64,000 nt of DNA from a candidate division FCPU426 bacterium (GCA_040756875.1 JBFLYH010000001.1:64001-128000), one strand, 5' to 3'. Shown: positions 11,101-52,240, counted from the stretch's first letter. Notes: a model not told the origin generated them from the letters alone. Made by a program: numbers and translations.

Positions 11101-14100
11101 ATGCAGGAAATCCTCCTTTCCCAGCTGCTGGACCGCATTTTTATCCAAAATCTGATCGACGCCTGCTACCGCACCACCGGCATGCCCCTACAGGTGTTGG
11201 ATGCCCGCGATGGTTCGGTTTTTGCCAGCGCCGGCATGCCGACTTCGGATCGCAACGGGTCCGGCCGCCATTTAATGGCCGCGGAATTGCGCCCGCAGGT
11301 TGCCGCACTGGAGTCAATCCGTTACGAATGCCGCCAGGGAATATGGGAAGCGGAACTGCCCCTGATGGTTCGGGACCGCCTGCTGGCCGTGGTTCATTCC
11401 GGCGGGTTTGTCATGAAAGATTCCGCCTTTCTCGACACCCCGGACGCATTCTCCGGCCCGCCGAACCAGCTTCCGCTGTTTGATTCCCAGACGGCGGACG
11501 CCGCGCTGGAATGCCACCGCACCGTGGCGAGGTTGCTCGTCCGGATGGCCGAAAACGACCGGCCGCCAACCGCGCCCGCCCAGACGAAAGCCGCCGAATC
11601 CGCCCGTCCAGACCAGGAATCGCTGCTTCACCTCCGCTACTTCGAAAACATGGACCACATCAACCGGATCATCCAGCAAACGAGCGATCCGGAACAAATG
11701 ATGCGCGACCTGCTCGATGCCGTACTGGCGATTTTCAACTGCGACCGGGCGTTTCTCGTTTATCCTTGCGAACCGACCGCCACCACCTGGACTTCGCCGA
11801 TGGAACGCACGCGGCCTGAGTATCCCGGCGTGCTGCAGCTGGGACTTGAAGTTCCGATGGATCCGGAAGTATTGCGCGTTTACCGGACCGTGAGAGCGAC
11901 ACCCGACCCGGTGACATTCGGCCCCGGGTCCGAACTCCCCTTGCCGCAGGGCACCACCGAACAATTCCATATTCTATCCATGATGAGCATGGCCGTTTAC
12001 CCCAAGAACGATCAGCCGTACATGTTCGGGATACACCAGTGCTCTTATGCTCGGGTGTGGAACGAAGAGGAAAAACGCCTCATGCGGGGGATCGGCGAGC
12101 GGTTGGGCGATTCATTGACCAGCATGCAAGCGTATCGCCATTTGCAGGAAAGCGAGCAACGCTACCGGGAAATATTCGAGAACATCACCAACGCCGTCGT
12201 GCTTTATGAAGCCTCCCCGGAGGGCCGGTTTAAAATACTGGATGTCAATCCCACCGGTGAGCGCATTCTGGGATTGCGCCGGACCGTCTTAGTCGGGAAG
12301 TACCTGGACGAAATGGAGGGCGAGGTCTTCCGATCCCAGTTTGAGAAAAACCGCCTCTGTCTAAAAGGCAAAGCGCCGATCAGCTACGACCGCCAAATCG
12401 ATACGGCCACGGGCCAGTGGCATATTTATACGACGCTGTTGCCCATGGCCGATGCGGCGGGCGTGATCCGGCGGATCATGGAAATCAACCGCGACATTAC
12501 CGAACAAACGCGCGCCGAAAAATCCCTGCGCCGCCTGAACCGGGAACTCCATGCCATCAGCAATTGCATCCAGGTCCTCATGCGGGCCGAAGACGAGGAC
12601 ATCCTGCTCAATGATATCTGCCGCATTATTTGCGAGGAAGCGGGATACCGCCTGGCCTGGGTGGGATATGCCGAGCCTGACGCCGGCAAAACCATCCGTC
12701 CCAAAGCCTGGGCCGGGTTTGAAGACGGTTATCTGGCTACGGTCCGCCCCAATTGGTCCGAGGACAGCGAACGCGGACGCGGCCCTTCGGGAATTGCGGT
12801 GCGCTCCGGCGAAAAGTGCTTCATCCAGGACATAACCACCGATGCGCGGATGGCCCCCTGGAAAGAAAACGCCGTGAAACGCGGTTACCATTCCATCATT
12901 GCCTTGCCGTTGAAAGACGAAACCAACGCCCCTTTCGGCGTGCTGGTGATTTACTCCGGTGAAACCGACGCTTTCACGGGGGACGAGGTCCGGCTGCTGG
13001 AGGAGCTGGCCGCTGACCTGGCTTTCGGCATCTGCAGCTTGCGCGCCCGCGAACGGCTCAAGCACGCGGAACGCGAGCAACTGGCGCATCTTCGGTACTT
13101 TGAATGCATGGATCAAATCAATCATGCCATCCGCCAAGCCAGCGACGTTGAAAAAATGGTGGGCGAGGTCCTCGATATGCTGTTGGCGAATTTTGATTGC
13201 GACCGGGCTTTTTTAATCTATCCCTGCGATCCGGAGGCTGATTCCTGGAGCGTGCCCATCGAACGCACCCGCCCCGAGTACCCGGGAGCCAACGCCTTGC
13301 AGGCCGTGGTGCCCATGACCGCGGAAACGCAAACCCTGTTGAGGATCGTGCGTTCGGAGGACGGGCCCGTGGCTTTCGGCCAGGACTCGCTGCATCCTTT
13401 GCCGCCGATAACTTCCAAACGGTTCAATATCCAGTCCCTGGTCGCCATGGCCGTGTACCCCAAGCAGGACAAACCTTATATGTTCGGCCTGCACCAGTGT
13501 TCTTATCCCCGTGTGTGGTCCGAAGAGGAGAAGTGGCTCCTGCGCGGGATCGGAGAGCGTTTGGGCGACGCGTTGACCAGTTTGCAGGCCCACCACCAAC
13601 TGCAGGAGAGCGAACGCCGCTACCGGGAAATATTCGAAAACACCACCAATGCAGTCATGCTCTACGAAGTCACTCCGGAAGGGCGCTTGCGTGTCTTGGA
13701 TATCAATCCTGCTTTTCAGCAAATAACGGGATACAAAAGCGAAGACTTGGATGGAAGATATATGGACGAATTCGGCTGCGACACACATTACCGGGAGTTT
13801 CTGGAAAAAAACCGGGTGTGTCTGGAAAGCAAAACCCCTGTCAGTTATCAACACCAGCTGAAAACGCCGACCGGGGAATGGCATTTCCAGACCACCCTGG
13901 TCCCGGTCAGCAATGCTGCCGGTTCGATTTACCGCATCGTAAACATCAGCCGTAATATCACTGAACAAATCCTGGCTGAAGCGGCTCTGAGGGATTCGGA
14001 GCAGCGGCTGTCCGAAATTTTTAATTTCCTGCCGGACGCCACCTTCGCCATTGACCGCCAAGGCCGCGTCATCGCGTGGAACAAAGCCATCGAGGAGATG

Positions 14101-43542: not shown

Positions 43543-44067
43543 TTGCCTCCTACTGCAATCAAGACCATCCGCGATCTGATCTTCTGGGAATACGCCAAAC
43601 TCATATCCCAATCCGCAGGCAAAGGCCGGGACAACTTTGCCTTTGTGATGTTTAAATTCAAGGAACTGCAAAGCAGGGCGATTTCCTGGTCCACGATCCT
43701 CAGGGAAGACCTCAAAACCTCCCGCGATGAATGCGCGTACTGCGGGGCCAAGTCCAACCTCAGCCACGACCACATCGTTCCCAAGCGGGAATGCCACTAC
43801 GACGAGATCCACAACATCGTGGCTGCTTGCAAGTCCTGCAATTCCTCCAAGGGGGACAAGGATTTGATCGAGTGGTATGGCCTTGACCGCCGCGCCGAAA
43901 TCCCCAGGATCGTAATGGGGAAATATCTGAAAATGCTGTACATCTGCCACGAATGCCGGGGGACATTGGCGAAGCGGGATATCAATAAGGATGGGAAGGT
44001 CGATTTGCTGGATTTGGGGTGGATATTCAAGGAGACGTGCGGGGAGAAGGGGAGTGCGCTTAAGTAA
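43543..44067 (+). CDS. HNH endonuclease
   Basis: CAYCG...DHIVP...NIVAACKSCNSSKG. Confidence 0.9.
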   Translation: MPPTAIKTIRDLIFWEYAKLISQSAGKGRDNFAFVMFKFKELQSRAISWSTILREDLKTSRDECAYCGAKSNLSHDHIVPKRECHYDEIHNIVAACKSCNSSKGDKDLIEWYGLDRRAEIPRIVMGKYLKMLYICHECRGTLAKRDINKDGKVDLLDLGWIFKETCGEKGSALK

Positions 44068-44142
44068 ATAAGTTAACTCCTGGAGTTCCCCTGATCATAG
44101 AATTCATAAAAAACGTAAGGGCGGAAAATTAGGAGGTCTAGA

Positions 44143-45015: not shown

Positions 45016-45183
45016 TAGAAACAAAATGGGATTAATAAATTTAAAGATGCCGTAATGAATGGGGACGGAGTGGCCCCGTTCACACGGGAGGAAGAATGAC
45101 TGATGAACCGGGACGTTGTTTAAATGTCAAAATGACCCGCGGCCTCCCCAATTGTGCAAGAGGTGCTTGCACAAATTGCTTAG

Positions 45184-45405
45184 TGTAAATGGGGACGTTG
45201 TTTAAATGTCAAAATGTTTACAGTGCTGATATTCACCTGACACCTCCGCCTTTTGCTGGTTGAGCTGCCGGGCTGCTTTCTGGTGTCCCTTTTCCCGCAG
45301 ATGTTTTAACGCCCAATGCCAGTCGCCTGTCCTTCACGACTTATCTCATAAAACCTTTCTCAACTGATGAAAAACGCATTGAAATCCCTCGCCACCGGTC
45401 TAATG
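45184..45405 (+). repeat. 222 bp direct repeat copy 1 (leader of truncated DUF1016 gene)
   Basis: Matches 46789-47010 with 2 mismatches by eye. Confidence 0.92.
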
Positions 45406-45432
45406 GATCAAGAATGTGCGAGGGGGAATATT

Positions 45433-46014
45433 ATGCCCGGCGAAAAAAGAAAGACGCACTTCCAAACCCAGCTCCATAGCCTGCCGTATGATTATGCGCA
45501 AATTCTTGCTGAGATAAAACACAGAATCCATAGTGAACGGTTGCGTGTTGCACGGGCGGCGAATTCTGCCCTGGTTATGCTGTATTGGGACATTGGCAGG
45601 TTAATACTAGGCCGCCAGAAACACGAAGGCTGGGGAACACGTGTCATAGACCGGCTTTCGGCGGATTTAAGGACGTCTTTCCCGGAAATGAATGGTTTGT
45701 CCCCGCGAAATCTTAAATATATGCGTGCGTTTGCCTCGGCATGGCCGAATAGATCAATTGTGCAAGAAGTGCTTGCACAAATTACTTGGTATCATAATCT
45801 TGCTTTGTTGGAAAAATTGAAACCATCAGAAGAAAGGCTGTGGTATGCCCGAAAAAGCCTTGATAACGGGTGGAGTCACAATATACTTGTAATTCAAATC
45901 GAAAGCGGCGCACGCGAACGGAGCGGAAAGGCGCTGCATAATTTCAAAACTACCCTGCCTGCGGAGGATTCGGATCTGGCGGGCCAGGTATTTAAGGACC
46001 CATATGGGTTTTGA
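45433..46014 (+). pseudogene. Truncated DUF1016/YhcG-like gene (N-terminal domain only)
   Basis: Paralog of 47038-48093 ending right after FKDPY; lacks the PDDEXK C-terminal domain. Confidence 0.8.
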
Positions 46015-46221
46015 TCGGGGCCGGAGTTAACTTGTTAACATAGCCAAGAATGGTGCCAGCCGCCATTTCTCTGTTTACTGTGCGGGAAATACTTGCGCAA
46101 ATGACTTGGTACCATGGAGATGCGGGACACTGTGTCCCTGAGATTCATTCAATCAAAACAGCAGGCGTGCTATTATGGGGAATATATTAATTATATTTAG
46201 GCACGGGCTTTATTAAATAAA

Positions 46222-46692
46222 ATGGAGATGAGAATGGAAATACAAATAGAGCCATTGTCTTCCGGAGAACAAGCTCCGCTGGATTTACTGAAGCTTGCTG
46301 ATCCATCTGAAAAAATGGTCGCTTTCTATTTAAGCCAGGGAGAGTGCTTTGTTGCTAAAGAAAGTAATGCTGTGGTGGGAGTTATTATTAGTATGAAAAC
46401 GAAGCCGGATACTTTTGAAATAATGGCCATAGCTGTAAAAACAGAGATGCAGAATAAGGGTATTGGTAAAAGGTTGATTGCTTTTGTACGGGAAAAGGTG
46501 AAAAAAACGGGCGCGAAATATTTGGAAATTGGGACAGGCAATCCCGGTGTGCAACAAATGCTGCTTTATCAAAAATGTGGTTTTAGAATAGTTGGCGTGG
46601 ATTTGGATTATTTCAGAAGAAATCACGATGAAAAAATAATGGTAAATGGCATTGAATGCCGGGATATGATTCGCATGCAAATGGAATTATAA
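46222..46692 (+). CDS. GNAT N-acetyltransferase
   Basis: LADPSE, QNKGIGKRLI, IGTGN, LYQKCGFRI, NGIECRDMI; AT-rich. Confidence 0.9.
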   Translation: MEMRMEIQIEPLSSGEQAPLDLLKLADPSEKMVAFYLSQGECFVAKESNAVVGVIISMKTKPDTFEIMAIAVKTEMQNKGIGKRLIAFVREKVKKTGAKYLEIGTGNPGVQQMLLYQKCGFRIVGVDLDYFRRNHDEKIMVNGIECRDMIRMQMEL

Positions 46693-46788
46693 AGACTAGG
46701 GACGTTTTTTAAATGTCAAAATGTCCTGCGCTCCAATAATCACCCCCTTTACTCCTCCCTGAATACTTCTGCCCTAAATGTTAATAAT

Positions 46789-47010
46789 TGTAAATGGGGA
46801 CGTTGTTTAAATGTCAAAATGTTTACAGTGCTGATATTCACATGACACCTCCGCCTTTTGCTGGTTGAGCTGCCGGGCTGCTTTCTGGTGTCCCTTTTCC
46901 CGCAGATGTTTTAACGCCCAATGCCAGTCGCCTGTCCTTCACGACTTATCTCATAAAACCTTTCTCAACTGATGAAAAACGCATTGAAATCCCTCGCCGC
47001 CGGTCTAATG
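46789..47010 (+). repeat. 222 bp direct repeat copy 2 (leader of full DUF1016 gene)
   Basis: Matches 45184-45405. Confidence 0.92.
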
Positions 47011-47037
47011 AATTAAAACTGTGCGGAAGGGAATTAT

Positions 47038-48093
47038 ATGCCCGGTGAAAAAGTGAAGGCGCGCTTCCATACCCAGCTCAATGGCCTGCCGTATGATTAT
47101 GCGCAAATTCTTGCTGAGATAAAACACAGAATCCAAAGCGAACGGTTGCGTGTTGTGCGGGCGGCGAATTCTGCCCTGGTCATGCTGTATTGGGACATTG
47201 GCCGCCTTATACTTGGTCGGCAGAAACATGAAGGCTGGGGAACACGCGTGATAGACCGGCTTTCGGAGGACTTGAAGGCGGTTTTTCCGGAAATGAGGGG
47301 TTTGTCCCCGAGAAACCTCAAGTATATGCGGGCTTTTGCCTTGGCCTGGTCTAATAAGGCAATTGTGCAGCAGCTTGCTGCACAATTGCCCTGGTATCAT
47401 AACTGCATGCTTTTGGAAAAAATTAATGCGATCCCCCTGCGTCTATGGTACGCCAAGATGGCGCTCACCCAAGGATGGAGCAGGAATATACTTTCACTAC
47501 AGATCGAAAGCGGTGCATACGAACGGAGCGGAAAAGCGCTGCATAATTTTAAAACTACGCTGCCGGCGGAGGATTCGGACCTGGCGAACCAAGTATTTAA
47601 AGACCCTTATTTATTTGACTTTCTCGGCATGGCTGAGCTTAAAAGAGAAAAGCAGGTCGAACAAGCTTTGGTGGATCATATTCAGAAGTTTTTGCTCGAA
47701 TTGGGCGCGGGGTTTGCTTTTGTCGGGCGGCAGGTTAGATTGGACGTTGGCGGCCAGGATTTCATCATTGACCTGCTTTTCTACCATCTTGCGCTCAGGT
47801 GTTATATCGTTATAGAACTCAAAGCCGTGCCATTTGAACCGGCGTTTGTTGGCCAAATGAACCTATACCTATCCGCTGTTGATGATCGTATGCGGCACGC
47901 GGAGGATAAGCCGACGATCGGGTTGCTGCTGTGCAAAGCAAAAAATCGCTTGATCGTGGAATATGCCCTCCGCGATTTGAAAAGGCCGATCGGTGTGGCG
48001 CGATGGGAAACGAAGATCGTCAGGTCGCTACCTAAAAAGTTTGCTGGGATACTGCCTTCGATCGAGCAGATCGAGGAGGAGTTGAAACGTTAA
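47038..48093 (+). CDS. PDDEXK nuclease domain protein, DUF1016/YhcG family
   Basis: LYWDIG, SPRNLKYMR, KDPYLFDFL, FLLELGAGFAFVGRQ, IDLLFYH, VIELK, GQMNLY, TIGLLLC. Confidence 0.95.
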   Translation: MPGEKVKARFHTQLNGLPYDYAQILAEIKHRIQSERLRVVRAANSALVMLYWDIGRLILGRQKHEGWGTRVIDRLSEDLKAVFPEMRGLSPRNLKYMRAFALAWSNKAIVQQLAAQLPWYHNCMLLEKINAIPLRLWYAKMALTQGWSRNILSLQIESGAYERSGKALHNFKTTLPAEDSDLANQVFKDPYLFDFLGMAELKREKQVEQALVDHIQKFLLELGAGFAFVGRQVRLDVGGQDFIIDLLFYHLALRCYIVIELKAVPFEPAFVGQMNLYLSAVDDRMRHAEDKPTIGLLLCKAKNRLIVEYALRDLKRPIGVARWETKIVRSLPKKFAGILPSIEQIEEELKR

Positions 48094-48284
48094 AGCCTTC
48101 GACAGTAGGTTTATACCAACCCGATTCCCCTGCCTCTCCCATACCCCGTATGCTAAAATGCCTGGGGACGTAGTTTGAATGTCCGGATGTCCAGCAGTCT
48201 CTCCTGCTCTTTGTGGACTAAAAGATGTCGTATTATTTTAAGATTAAAAGGTTAAAACAGCCGATGAGCATTATAAATATACCA

Positions 48285-49112
48285 ATGAAACATCCCTTGG
48301 TATCTATTTTAGTTTTCCTAATGCTGATCTGTTTAGTCTCAATTACCCCTTCCTCTGCCCGCGACTGGCCTGAGTCCCGCACTGCGACTATCTACTCCCA
48401 AGGCGCCCGCATTCCTTATCTCCCATCCGGCGGCACGGAAAGCAAACCATCCACCTGCCAAGGCGCTTCCACGCAATTGCGGATCACCCAGGTTCTGGCA
48501 AAAATGCCCCGGCACGACGTGGACCTGGGCCGGACTACGCTGACCTTGCTTTCTTTGGATGGCAAGAAGGAGCTGCTTAAAGAGACCTTTACCGAGGTTT
48601 GGGAATGCCTGGGGTACAATCCAACCGCCAAGCGTTATGTCCTGATCACCAAGAATGAACACGGCACCAAAGTCACTTTGCGCGGCTTGGTCTATTTGGA
48701 AGAGAACCCGGCGAGGTTCAAGGATTCGGTGTTTGGAGAAAAACAGTTTGAAGCTGCGGCGTCCTTGCCCGGGCCGGATGGGAACTATCTGGCGCTGATC
48801 GGCGCTCCGGAAGGGGAAGACACCTACAAGCTGTATGTCCTGAATCTGGTCGCGGACAAACTGCAACTCCTGGGCGATGCGCCTGGCCCTCCGCCTCTGA
48901 CCAAGGAAGATTTGGAATGGCCGGAAGCCTTGGACATGATGGCAGCCTGGGAAGCGCCGGAACGGCACTACACTGAGCTGGAACCAGGCATCTGGTCCTT
49001 CACGAACCCGTCCACCCTGCAAGTCAGCTATGGCAAAGACACCTATAAAGCCCGCAATAAAAAGCGCAGCATAAAAACCTGGGATTTAAAAAGCCTGTTC
49101 AAACCAATTTAG
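48285..49112 (+). CDS. Secreted hypothetical protein
   Basis: Signal peptide from MKHPLV; stop codon overlaps the repeat copy at 49112. Confidence 0.7.
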   Translation: MKHPLVSILVFLMLICLVSITPSSARDWPESRTATIYSQGARIPYLPSGGTESKPSTCQGASTQLRITQVLAKMPRHDVDLGRTTLTLLSLDGKKELLKETFTEVWECLGYNPTAKRYVLITKNEHGTKVTLRGLVYLEENPARFKDSVFGEKQFEAAASLPGPDGNYLALIGAPEGEDTYKLYVLNLVADKLQLLGDAPGPPPLTKEDLEWPEALDMMAAWEAPERHYTELEPGIWSFTNPSTLQVSYGKDTYKARNKKRSIKTWDLKSLFKPI

Positions 49113-49370
49113 GGACGTTGTTTGAATGTCCGGATGTCCCGCGGCCTCGCCTTTTCTCCTCAAACTTGAACCCGTAAATGTTCGATTTCCTTTAAGCATG
49201 GGCGCTTCATCCCGGACCCTTTGCGAAAAAGCCGGGAAGGGGAAAAGAACCAAGGGGATTGAGGGTTGACACTGAGAGCGTAATCTTTTATTAATAGTGA
49301 AAACGGGCTGTCCTCGATATAACCTCCGAATCAAACCGGCTGGCCGTAATCAAAGCGCGCGAGGTATAGG

Positions 49371-50474
49371 ATGAGAAAAAATATCTGGGTCATGGGCATG
49401 ATCATGTGGTTGGCCCTTCCTGCCATGGGGCAGGCGGTCACCTTCGGGGAAACCGGCACTGGCACAGCCGGCAGCACGGTGAACGGTTATCTGATGCTGT
49501 GCCAATTCACCTGCCCGGCGGATGGAACCATAAACCGGATAAACTTGAGAGTTGATTATACGAACGGCAGCGGCCGGGTGGCCATTTACTCCAATGCCGG
49601 GGCCGATCAACCCGGCGTGCTGCTGGCTGAAAGCGCTTCCCAGGGCGTCAGCACCGGCTGGAACACTTTTACCGTCGCTTCTACGGCCGTGAGCAATGGA
49701 GCAACCTATTGGCTGGCCTTTCAATTGAATTCCAGCATTACCGGCGTCCGCTATTACACGGATTCAAACCTGAATAAACAGCGGTATTACAATTACGCCT
49801 ATGCCGCTTTTCCGGCCAACTTGTCCGGCAGCCCGCCCAACGGCTCCCTGGCGGCCCGGACCTGCATCTATGCCTTTGACGTCGAAACGCCGACGCCGAC
49901 GCTCACAGCTTCGGCGACCGCGACGCTCTCCGCCACCATTTCCCCCACGGCGACCATCACTCCCACTGTTACTGACACGCCCACCCTGACCTCCACGGCC
50001 ACGCCCTCGGATTCGCCGACCCGCACCGTCACCACGACCACAACGCCCACAGGCACGATCACCCCGACCGCGACCATCACCTTGACCTCCACCATCAGCC
50101 CGACTTTTACGATCAGCCCGACCGCAACCGTTTCCCCGATGGTCACGGCAACCGTGTTGCCCGCCTCCAGCCTGACCTCCACCCCGAACCTCCTGGCGGA
50201 GGTATTGTTAAACGGGAAGCAGGCGATGGTTTTCCCCAACCCCGCCCGGGATGAGGTCCGGTTCCTGGTGCATCTGGACCGGGCGGCAACCCTGCGGCTG
50301 GACCTGTTCAATTCGAACGGTGAAAGGATCGCGGGCCTGGACGCCGCTTTGCCGGCCGGCCGGGGGCAGGTCATTCAATGGGATTGCCGCGATGTGGCGC
50401 CCGGCGTATACCACGTCCGCCTGCTGAAGGACGGGCAGGCCTGGGAAAAGCTAAAAGTGGCGGTCGTAAGGTAG
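49371..50474 (+). CDS. Secreted protein with beta-sandwich domain, Thr-Pro linker and T9SS type-A-like CTD
   Basis: Signal peptide; RVAIYS...GWN...YWLAF; TPT linker; VFPNP...APGVYHV...KVAVVR. Confidence 0.8.
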   Translation: MRKNIWVMGMIMWLALPAMGQAVTFGETGTGTAGSTVNGYLMLCQFTCPADGTINRINLRVDYTNGSGRVAIYSNAGADQPGVLLAESASQGVSTGWNTFTVASTAVSNGATYWLAFQLNSSITGVRYYTDSNLNKQRYYNYAYAAFPANLSGSPPNGSLAARTCIYAFDVETPTPTLTASATATLSATISPTATITPTVTDTPTLTSTATPSDSPTRTVTTTTTPTGTITPTATITLTSTISPTFTISPTATVSPMVTATVLPASSLTSTPNLLAEVLLNGKQAMVFPNPARDEVRFLVHLDRAATLRLDLFNSNGERIAGLDAALPAGRGQVIQWDCRDVAPGVYHVRLLKDGQAWEKLKVAVVR

Positions 50475-50674
50475 AGAAACAGGGTGGTGAATAGAGACGT
50501 AGTTTCTGAATAGGGACCTGGTTTGAATGTCCGGATGTCCCGCGGTCTTGCCTTCTCCCCTCGTGTCTAAATCGGGAACTCCGGTAGTACAAAAAATCGG
50601 GAGACACCAAGATTGAGAACAGAGTCTGTTTGCTGGTTTAGAAGAAGCGCGTGGAAATGAGCGGCGCGGGGGGA

Positions 50675-51280
50675 CTAGCTCCAGGTGAATTCGAGGACGC
50701 AATGCGATTTGCCCTGCCGGATGCATTGCAATTGCCGGGCCCGGACGCTCTCGGCGCCGGAGTATTGCAGCGCCGTGGAGACCCAGCCTTCGCAACCCAC
50801 GCAGACGGATTGTTTCCAGACCTGCGTATCGTGCATGTGATATACCACCCGTTTGTCTGCGACCTCGGCCACGCTCATGCTTCCGGGCGTGAAATAGCGT
50901 TTGAAAATAGCCGGCACCCGTTTGGCGATGAACAGGGGAGTGCCGATCTTTAAAAAAATCGTCAGGACCGTGCTGAGATCGTGAAAAGCCGAAAAAGCGG
51001 CGAGTTCCCGAAAAAGTCGGGGATCCCCGTCATTTAAGGAAGCCAGGTAGTCGTAGGTTTGAAGAAAGAGGCGGCCCGGCAAACGGGAGACAGACAGCAC
51101 CTTGTCCGAGGACCAGTACTCGGCGTCCTGCGGGGGCAGTTGGGCCAAAAAACGTTTATACGCCTCCTGGCCCAGGCTTTCTTGAAACCAATGCCTGCCC
51201 CCCAGGAGCAGGGTGGCGCGAAAAAGCGGGTCTGCCATAGGCGGCGGCTTTCCCTTCTCTGCAGTATCTGCCTTATTCAT
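50675..51280 (-). CDS. V4R/H-NOX-like (DUF2378-like) protein, paralog 3
   Basis: FRAT, VLSVSRLP, IFKRYFTPG, QCIRQGKSHCVLEFTW. Confidence 0.65.
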   Translation of the reverse strand: MNKADTAEKGKPPPMADPLFRATLLLGGRHWFQESLGQEAYKRFLAQLPPQDAEYWSSDKVLSVSRLPGRLFLQTYDYLASLNDGDPRLFRELAAFSAFHDLSTVLTIFLKIGTPLFIAKRVPAIFKRYFTPGSMSVAEVADKRVVYHMHDTQVWKQSVCVGCEGWVSTALQYSGAESVRARQLQCIRQGKSHCVLEFTWS

Positions 51281-51387
51281 AGTAACGTACGCGCGGATGA
51301 AACTTAAACAGATAATCTTTGTTAATTATTTACGTCTCCCTTAATCCGCCTGCCCCTAAAATACACAAACCTAAATCAAATGCAGTC

Positions 51388-51873
51388 TCACCGGAGCTTA
51401 AGCAGCTTTACGATATCTCCTTCAATCTGGAGCGGCCGGACAGCCGGGGCATAGCGCTTGAACGGCTTGCCGTCCCGGCTGATCAGGAACTTGGTGAAGT
51501 TCCACTTGATCCTGCCTCCGAAGGGGCCTCCGGGCAGGGCTTTTTTCAGGTAGGCGAACACTGGGTGGGTCTTCTTGCCGTTCACGTCAATCAATCCGCT
51601 CAACTGGAAAGTCACCCCGAAATTCACTTTGCAGACCTGCACGACGGTTTTATTGGTCTCGGGTTCCTGCCCGAGAAACTGGTTGCAGGGAAACCCGAGC
51701 ACGACCAGGCCGTGGTCCTTATATTTTTGGTGCAACTGCTCAAGTTCGACGAACTGGGGGGCCAGGCCGCATTTCGTGGCTGTATTGACCACCAGCACCA
51801 CCTTGCCCTTGTACTCGCTCAGGTTTAAAGTCCTGCCGATCGTATCGCGGAAAGATAAATCGTAGAATTCCAT
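51388..51873 (-). CDS. Glutathione peroxidase family (Cys type)
   Basis: VNTATKCGLAPQ, LGFPCNQF, IKWNFTKFL. Confidence 0.95.
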   Translation of the reverse strand: MEFYDLSFRDTIGRTLNLSEYKGKVVLVVNTATKCGLAPQFVELEQLHQKYKDHGLVVLGFPCNQFLGQEPETNKTVVQVCKVNFGVTFQLSGLIDVNGKKTHPVFAYLKKALPGGPFGGRIKWNFTKFLISRDGKPFKRYAPAVRPLQIEGDIVKLLKLR

Positions 51874-52240
51874 GGTTAACACCCCGGTTGGTGATGGTTG
51901 TATGCAATAGCCTGTAATACTTGGACACCCATTATATGCCTTGGCCGTGATTTAAACCGCGTTATTCCGCCGGAAGGGTGCCGGCGTTGATAAACCGGGA
52001 CGTTATTTATGCGTCCGCATGACCCGTGTTTCGCCTGCTGAAAATTAGCCGCAATTAAAGAGGAGGGGCATGGATAAGTAAATAAAAAAATGAGATACTC
52101 TGATGGAAATGCTTATATAATTATCAACGTTCCCAAGTGCTCACTAACGCAGGTATGGGTGGGCAGCCAGAACTGGCGCAAGCCGAAAGCGGCAGATCAG
52201 CGGCTTGAGGCGCTGCGATTACGCTCCGGGAGAAGAGGGC

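Follow-up and report, generated by a model that had tools for sequence, protein, structure and literature searches.

TIRYTs are subclass 2.1 Y1 proteins with a Bac_DnaA_C or helix-turn-helix (HTH) domain, and their terminal inverted repeats (TIRs) carry a GGGGWSAS-type motif and sometimes form moderately abundant families that occur singly, as dimers or in clusters, according to PMC3733652 and PMC6006769; PMC6006769 also describes these TIRs as being without the usual hairpins. DUF1016 proteins appear in the literature as predicted PD-(D/E)XK nucleases and as mobile-element cargo, and PMC9881135 reports an enrichment of "DUF1016 family protein" beside the genes that programmed inversions target (odds ratio 17.4). 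The two families meet in a 64,000-nt stretch of DNA from a candidate division FCPU426 bacterium (GCA_040756875.1 JBFLYH010000001.1:64001-128000; hereafter the window, with positions counted from its first letter), where two direct repeats at 45110-45216 enclose a 36-nt insert that resembles part of a neighboring DUF1016 gene. Here we show that the repeats are solo TIR copies of a TIRYT, or "TIRtron", element and that the insert is a relic of a palindrome embedded in the coding sequence throughout the DUF1016 family, so that the unit as a whole is probably a rearrangement scar.

The unit lies in a low-GC island (window 43.5-52 kb, 38-55% GC versus about 60%) whose genes, all on the + strand, encode an HNH endonuclease, a DUF2971 protein, an N-domain-only DUF1016 protein, a GNAT protein, a full DUF1016/YhcG protein and the products of two further open reading frames (ORFs). 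The exact 25-mer GGGACGTTGTTTAAATGTCAAAATG is found at 45110, 45192 and 46797 and, with one mismatch, at 46699, compared with 0 matches in 100 shuffles; the copies form two pairs, 45110/45192 spaced 82 nt apart and 46699/46797 spaced 98 nt apart. On the left side of the unit, a solo TIR copy (45110-45148, +) comprises the 25-mer at 45110-45134 and a 14-nt tail common to the copies at 49112 and 50513. The insert itself, or "spacer" (45149-45184, +), contains a hairpin at about 45149-45178 and is followed by a duplicated block (45185-45483, +) that includes GTAAATG, the TIR at 45192-45216, the upstream region and the DUF1016 5' end, with its twin at 46789-47088. The initial annotation of this region, which rested on these two repeat copies, a 33/36 match of the insert to 45755-45790 with A/G transitions at all three differences, an origin of the insert in the nuclease family's own gene, and a different sequence within the second pair, proved accurate on each of these points: the 73 nt inside 46699/46797 are unrelated to the insert and have no other copy in the genome, and their fold is not significant (z -0.57).

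The repeat is the terminus of a mobile element. Inverted 26-nt copies of the same sequence family (family 1) bracket a 336-aa gene at C1:1033652-1034659, 0.9 Mb from the unit on contig C1, one lying 73 nt before the ATG and the other at the stop codon. The 19-mer core of the family has 18 genome copies at no more than 2 mismatches, with 0 control hits, and 0-3 copies in each of 30 relatives. Family-1 TIR copies occupy about two dozen intergenic sites scattered over three contigs, where they form same-strand clusters between low-GC island genes; within islands they immediately follow the stop codons of consecutive genes, in left-end orientation. Four degenerate copies in the present island follow this arrangement (48165, 49112, 50513 and 51997, within 48165-52021 on the + strand; 5, 4, 6 and 7 mismatches of 25), each just 3' of the stop codon of a + strand island gene. 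A second TIR family (GGGGCC GGAGTTAACTT..., 11 genome hits) flanks the sole other Y1_Tnp gene of the genome. Family 1 reads GGGGACGT and family 2 reads GGGGCCGG, and the first 5-6 of the 8 GGGGWSAS positions agree.

Both genes encode 336-aa proteins that are 42% identical to one another and match Y1_Tnp (PF01797, IS200-like; E 8.4e-11 and 4.1e-11), with HVH and HIH motifs and a common ..VRYIHLNPVRAG.. block visible in the sequences. Protein 1 also has a weak Bac_DnaA_C match (E 4.8e-6; 26.9 bits, under the 31.5 cut-off), which went unreported for protein 2. Of 31 related genomes, 24 have homologues (within the family, 2-13 per genome), and inverted repeats of 21-30 nt flank all nine of the homologues examined in relatives, their cores being mostly of the GGGACG(G/T)- or GGTGCCG-type. 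As single-stranded DNA, the 25-mer has no significant fold (z -0.12). These findings establish both 25-nt repeats of the unit as solo TIR copies rather than array repeats. Assignment to REP/RAYT elements (REPtrons) was rejected: NCBIfam NF047646 (REP-associated tyrosine transposase) scored the two proteins at 79.8 and 75.6 bits, just below its cut-off of 80, and the repeat has no significant hairpin. The second TIRYT gene is located at C1:1039786-1040793 (L004:11680-12980), and its TIR family often occurs within family-1 clusters. A sequence of ~90 nt (GGGGTGCCTAATTTGATGGGCAAGGGAAGAT...) follows both TIRYT genes (L004:5560-5660 and L004:11680-11780), suggesting either a common insertion context or duplication of a segment.

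The insert differs from DUF1016 copy 1 by G/A, G/A and A/G (33/36, 92%), and two further members of this 36-mer family lie in the window, at 46075-46110 (67%) and, inside DUF1016 copy 2, at 47360-47395 (69%). The 36-mer folds as a hairpin, with a single-stranded DNA free energy of -9.8 kcal/mol (z -4.1) that none of 200 shuffles equaled. A covariance model of the DUF1016 palindrome site (R1), scanned against the genome, returned three places: copy 2 (47 bits), copy 1 (44.8 bits) and the insert (26.5 bits, E 0.002 genome-wide). Because the model finds just the two genes and the insert, the latter is an orphan copy of the family's coding palindrome. Its homology starts at the 5' foot of the stem (0 nt) and stops 6 nt past the 3' foot; on the left it is flanked by the tail of one TIR copy and on the right by the next copy. 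At the position of the invariant Trp codon, TGG, the insert reads TAG, with the stem intact. The insert is thus a DUF1016 relic consisting of the conserved coding palindrome plus 6 nt. The initial annotation had set an ordinary decayed third gene copy against its own reading, and the locus does not simply contain such a copy in place: DUF1016 homology continues on neither side of the insert, and 43-50 kb holds two DUF1016 genes only. An isolated second fragment (46075-46125, +; reading ..VREILAQMTWYH... in the translation of ORF 46050-46190) retains peptide similarity, and its hairpin is lost (R1 8.2 bits).

To place the palindrome in its family, 62 genes were compared, namely the 60 best-scoring DUF1016_N matches from 99 same-phylum genomes, 38 of which contain the family, and the two window genes. 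In 45 of the 62, the center of the longest perfect hairpin in a ~400-nt segment lay exactly 15 nt ahead of the invariant Trp codon. A perfect stem of at least 7 bp was present within 170 nt upstream of that codon in 56 genes, versus 2 of 116 control segments from the same genes, and the other six have a hairpin with a mismatch. The encoded peptides vary widely (IVQQLAAQL, ILDALRQEL, KLAPLVREI, IFQTVSGKL and others), so pairing is kept by compensatory change. Across the 62-sequence alignment, the 12-bp helix is 86.3% paired with changes on both sides in 11 of 12 pairs, and its covariation score of 0.618 compares with 0.164 ± 0.015 for shuffles (0/500 reach it) and 0.06-0.14 for slid partners. 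RNAalifold independently predicted the inner 8 bp, with compensatory changes in 8/8 pairs. Among the hairpin codons of the IVQ..LAQ subfamily, 42/48 synonymous third positions are conserved, compared with 237/491 elsewhere, the comparisons all being made to copy 1 and hence mutually non-independent. Taken together, these data show a family-wide palindrome of 7-15 bp with a 3-5-nt loop, encoding a short helix before the invariant Trp and under selection at the nucleic-acid level.

The feature extends to other phyla. A tblastn list of 513 records supplied a sample of 14 plasmid-borne genes, and 12 of these (Pseudomonadota, Cyanobacteriota, Bacteroidota, Actinomycetota) have a 7-15-bp hairpin at the same site, including genes from Burkholderia, Piscinibacter, Leptolyngbya, Spirosoma, Phocaeicola, Rathayibacter, Rhodococcus, Legionella, an E. 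coli plasmid, Proteus and Aeromonas; no such hairpin is present in the genes from Arthrobacter and Nostoc. The literature searched contains no description of a DUF1016 palindrome or hairpin and Rfam holds no matching family, so within the limits of that search the coding palindrome appears to be undescribed. Selection normally acts against long perfect palindromes in coding DNA, and their persistence here implies a function of the DNA or RNA. We regard a site of DNA-level exchange or processing as a plausible role in intact genes, at somewhat under even chances; an mRNA hairpin limiting nuclease expression is a more tentative candidate, and a site bound by the ParB/KorB-like N-terminal domain of the protein itself is unlikely. 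Some DUF1016 genes (L058/L120, L080) contain a second perfect hairpin of 10-11 bp about 80-110 nt upstream of the usual one, and in genes with an insertion before the Trp motif the hairpin is displaced upstream.

The N-terminal domain encoded by window 47116-47526 was predicted with high confidence (pLDDT 93.3) to be all-helical, and in this model the palindrome would encode residues 81-90, a short helix and turn immediately ahead of the helix whose first residue is the invariant Trp. No solved structure for the DUF1016 protein was found by sequence. The best structural matches of the model were the DNA-binding domains of ParB, Spo0J, KorB and SopB (Z 7.6-5.5, 89-98 residues aligned), the first three having Z 7.6 (rmsd 3.3 Å, 96 residues), Z 7.5 (rmsd 2.4 Å, 89 residues) and Z 6.8 (rmsd 3.5 Å, 96 residues). 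Foldseek pointed to the ParB/KorB group too, weakly (E 0.8 or worse, with no match at E 0.001 or better). The predicted likeness is best treated as a lead, since helical models may reach such Z by chance. ParB, Spo0J, KorB and SopB proteins bind inverted-repeat sites; if the likeness is real, DUF1016 would be a palindrome-binding HTH domain fused to a PD-(D/E)XK nuclease.

The two DUF1016 genes of the window are the only ones in the 3.22-Mb genome. Copy 1 (45367-46014, +) is truncated to the N-terminal domain (Pfam DUF1016_N, E 4.6e-41, without YhcG_C) and contains an internal palindrome at about 45755-45783. Copy 2 (47038-48093, +) is a full-length DUF1016/YhcG nuclease gene with both Pfam domains (DUF1016_N, E 3.8e-42; YhcG_C, E 1.4e-62), and its palindrome (47358-47390) has perfect 15-nt arms at 47358-47372 and 47376-47390 around a 3-nt loop. 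The block from 45184 to about 46005 recurs from 46789 to about 47610; its first part, 45185-45483 and the twin at 46789-47088, is 93% identical over 300 nt, at a spacing of 1605. Identity between the copies is uneven along this block: it is 99-100% over the upstream 215 nt (45185-45400) and 70-100% up to 45750, then sinks from the hairpin on, going from about 80% to 40-57% (about 45780-45870), and recovers to 90-97% at 45900-45960. Such mosaicism suggests gene conversion between diverged alleles. Homology stops at about 46005, and a family-2 solo TIR copy (GGGGCC GGAGTTAACTT..., 46017-46042, +; C1:110023, 0 mismatches) lies exactly at the break of copy 1, which is truncated by this element.

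Orphan hairpins also occur in other genomes. An R1 scan of the 99 genomes, followed by inspection of 12 loci, identified 11 short orphan hairpin fragments in 10 loci. Two of them stand just upstream of full DUF1016 genes (L109, L110); L113 has one orphan before a DUF1016 gene and one directly after it, and the L115 orphan is 1.3 kb downstream of such a gene. In six loci the orphans stand alone (L111, L114, L116-L119). Two of these six, L111 and L116, contain a tandem pair of differing hairpin fragments from separate subfamilies; one L116 orphan, which comes from a different genus in the same family, matches the window orphan at 28/29 positions, and the fragment beside it resembles the copy-2 hairpin. 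Of 12 orphans, 3 have a mutated Trp codon, which fits the expectation for pseudogene relics, and low-scoring orphans are decayed, with wobble pairs and mutated Trp codons. Chimeric ORFs with a junction at the hairpin were found at two loci: in L085 (G017:C14) the DUF1016_N homology ends at the palindrome (profile 1-86), and in L086 (G041:C36) it begins there (profile 77-137) within an 818-aa ORF. Two other candidates, L084 and L087, were rejected as fragments ending at the hairpin, being contig ends of one split gene. At three further loci, TIRYT genes or an 18-codon TIRYT start abut truncated DUF1016 genes (L112, G098:C14; L088, G020:C83; L089, G020:C248). The initial annotation had also suggested a survey of other DUF1016 loci for repeat-bounded, self-matching segments; other genomes do contain orphan copies of this stretch of the gene, and these are not repeat-bounded.

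We consider that the unit at 45110-45216 is probably a rearrangement scar in the low-GC island, cut at the feet of a recombination-prone palindrome. In single-stranded DNA the palindrome would fold as a hairpin and could become a hotspot for breakage, strand switching or exchange. Such a hotspot would place rearrangement junctions at the feet of the palindrome, here 0 nt from the 5' foot and 6 nt from the 3' foot, and would leave a hairpin-sized scar; rearrangements within a TIR-rich island might then yield hairpin-centered orphans, chimeric genes and mosaic paralogues. In favor of such a hotspot are the chimeric ORFs of L085 and L086, the drop in identity between copies 1 and 2 that begins at the hairpin, and the orphan fragments of other genomes with their tandem pairs and mutated Trp codons. 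Several observations weigh against this interpretation. The TIR motif GGGGACGT agrees only in part with the published GGGGWSAS consensus. None of the 12 scanned non-window orphan sites has a convincing TIR-like core nearby, so the TIR flanking is peculiar to this locus and may have arisen by coincidence. Because the search model for the orphans rewards hairpins, their intact stems are partly a matter of ascertainment and are no evidence that breakpoints cluster at the hairpin. The TIRYT/DUF1016 junctions of L088, L089 and L112 fall at profile positions of about 44-69, away from the hairpin, and the identity drop between copies 1 and 2 is gradual over about 50 nt rather than sharp. The inner stem (489 cells, 442 of them Watson-Crick) has too few G.T versus A.C pairs (13 versus 7) to tell DNA from RNA. 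The three differences of the window orphan from copy 1 spare or extend the stem, which fits selection too, at a number (n=3) that is not significant. Finally, the unit may give rise to a functional RNA.

A broader alternative concerns the family rather than this locus: DUF1016/YhcG genes across bacteria would carry an ancient cis element, a covarying palindrome for self-recognition, autoregulation or allele exchange that encodes part of the ParB/KorB-like DNA-binding region, and the orphans would be functional decoys or donors instead of debris. We regard this as possible and rather doubtful. A narrower version, in which the orphan hairpin of the window works on the DUF1016 nuclease as a DNA or RNA decoy, a regulator or an antitoxin-like partner, or else as a silent cassette donating sequence when the variable segment that starts at the hairpin undergoes gene conversion, is unlikely. 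It draws on the placement of the insert, on the same strand as copy 1 and about 220-290 nt upstream of its possible starts, and on the similar placement of the L109, L110 and L113 orphans beside full genes. The tandem orphans of different subfamilies in L111 and L116, including the one nearly identical to the window's, are in keeping with it, as are the three differences from copy 1, which lie in the loop, extend the stem or fall outside it, and the predicted ParB/Spo0J/KorB/SopB-like N-domain, which may bind palindromes. This genome, however, has a single orphan, and many orphans elsewhere stand far from DUF1016 genes (L111, L114, L116-L119). The decay of low-scoring orphans also speaks against function, and the structural Z scores lie within the range that helical models often reach by chance. 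A promoter and terminator scan gave counts about equal to the shuffle expectation, with no signal specific to the 45110-45216 unit. Moreover, the hairpin DNA is strongly conserved within the subfamily, a Leptolyngbya gene being 29/30 identical to copy 1 over the hairpin codons; near-identity to distant orphans can follow from this conservation alone, which counts against a functional orphan.

Y1 HUH transposases act on hairpins in single-stranded DNA, and the unit could in principle be a small non-autonomous mobile element, formed when the TIRYT enzyme took the DUF1016 hairpin as a surrogate end and moved TIR, tail and hairpin together. The architecture fits, as the unit begins with a TIR and the hairpin lies 14 nt past the 25-mer; by eye, unrelated hairpins stand at a similar distance after other family-1 copies (the tandem units at C2:398517-398760, C3:165895 and C3:167059), and TIRYT genes or fragments abut DUF1016 fragments at L088, L089 and L112. 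We nevertheless find this account improbable: the unit is single-copy, the 25-mer is itself unfolded, and orphans elsewhere are without TIRs. The hairpin-free description of TIRYT TIRs in PMC6006769 points the same way.

Least likely of all, and largely refuted, is a CRISPR-like or other repeat-spacer array whose guide or antisense RNA would target the DUF1016 gene, or else a cassette site of the integron type. This reading is suggested by two identical direct repeats 82 nt apart around a self-matching insert and by repeats at gene boundaries of a cassette-like one-strand island but is contradicted by repeats that are members of a dispersed, transposase-linked TIR family, by an insert in sense orientation to the gene, by unique filler in the neighboring pair, and by a repeat that lacks attC-like folding (z -0.12, -0.57) or an Rfam match. 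The mini-array proposed in the initial annotation accordingly gives way to solo TIRs around the only self-matching insert of the genome; its statement that the window has no cas or reverse transcriptase gene holds among the ORFs at about 37.7-57 kb, the part of the window that was scanned. Individual candidates of this kind were each rejected. For a CRISPR array, there are two copies 82 nt apart plus a pair 98 nt apart, the insert comes from the genome's own gene, and no Cas domain was detected in the scanned ORFs, no genome-wide cas search having been made. For an integron attC site, the repeat units fold no better than shuffles and those ORFs contain no integrase domain, no genome search for intI having been made. 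A template/variable repeat pair of a diversity-generating retroelement is not supported either, since the A/G transitions run in both directions and no reverse transcriptase is encoded among the ORFs scanned in the neighborhood. An Rfam scan of 42-54 kb at E up to 5 yielded merely two chance-level rows and no matching family.

The remaining features of the island surround this core. A family-2 TIR copy in inverse orientation follows the HNH endonuclease gene (44061-44080, -; C1:108080, 2 mismatches). The GNAT acetyltransferase gene (46222-46692, +; Pfam Acetyltransf_1, E 8.9e-14) lies between both DUF1016 copies and is followed by the second TIR pair (46699-46723 and 46797-46821; 46699-46821, +). 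Elsewhere in the genome, at L007 (about 13517-13780; C2:398517-398780), three head-to-tail units of ~82 nt stand beside a Type I restriction-modification operon, each consisting of a family-1 TIR, a C-rich tail and a small CCCTGC..GCAGGG hairpin. Further family-1 TIR clusters (L005:6761-8905 and L008:7957-11345) are found beside reverse-transcriptase genes, of which one has a SLATT_5 neighbor and two form an adjacent pair; other neighbors include BrnT/BrnA, HigB-type and Gp49/HI1420 toxin-antitoxin pairs, Fic, and Type I restriction-modification with SIR2 and GIY-YIG genes. With reverse-transcriptase, toxin-antitoxin, Fic and Type I restriction-modification genes as neighbors, these TIR clusters sit in defense-type islands.

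Compared with known systems, the repeat-insert-repeat unit itself is ordinary, consisting of transposon-end copies around a gene relic. It resembles CRISPR arrays and the RNA repeats of Type III toxin-antitoxin systems in that direct repeats enclosing about 36 nt precede a nuclease gene, and departs from them in its irregularity, in a repeat that is a transposon end, in an insert that is a sense copy of the genome's own gene, and in the absence of cas among the ORFs scanned. Silent-cassette and partial-gene systems, such as the hsdS half-genes of phase-variable Type I restriction-modification loci, likewise have partial copies near a full gene in defense-type islands and mosaic paralogues; the orphans described here differ in their direct orientation and short length (about 40-90 nt) and have no recombinase gene visible beside them.

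The palindrome can be compared with the REP/REPIN sequences and with intragenic palindromic elements, of which the Rickettsia palindromic elements are an example: these too are short palindromic DNAs that can lie within coding sequence and be translated, and at this locus there is an association with HUH Y1 proteins. Unlike them, the DUF1016 palindrome is not an insertion, as its place is always the same codon position in a single protein family, across phyla, where its sides covary, and it is not dispersed, having 3 copies in its own genome. A perfect palindrome at one fixed coding place in a widespread nuclease family of defense islands and plasmids, in at least five phyla and kept at the expense of the peptide, gives the finding its interest, and its function could explain regulation of the DUF1016 nuclease, recombination, or self/non-self discrimination.

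The closest relatives of the repeats are the TIRtrons and their TIRYTs, themselves relatives of REP/RAYT systems. Shared with them are a single-copy Y1 HUH gene with a putative C-terminal DnaA-C-like HTH, TIRs beginning GGGG(A/C)C, and a moderately abundant family of the same TIR whose copies stand alone, in pairs or in clusters, with two TIRYT genes here, each having its own TIR family. The present elements differ in matching GGGGWSAS in part, in solo TIRs that stand in one orientation behind successive island genes, and in one TIR pair that brackets a gene relic. The locus thereby provides a clear and well-populated further example of TIRYT elements.

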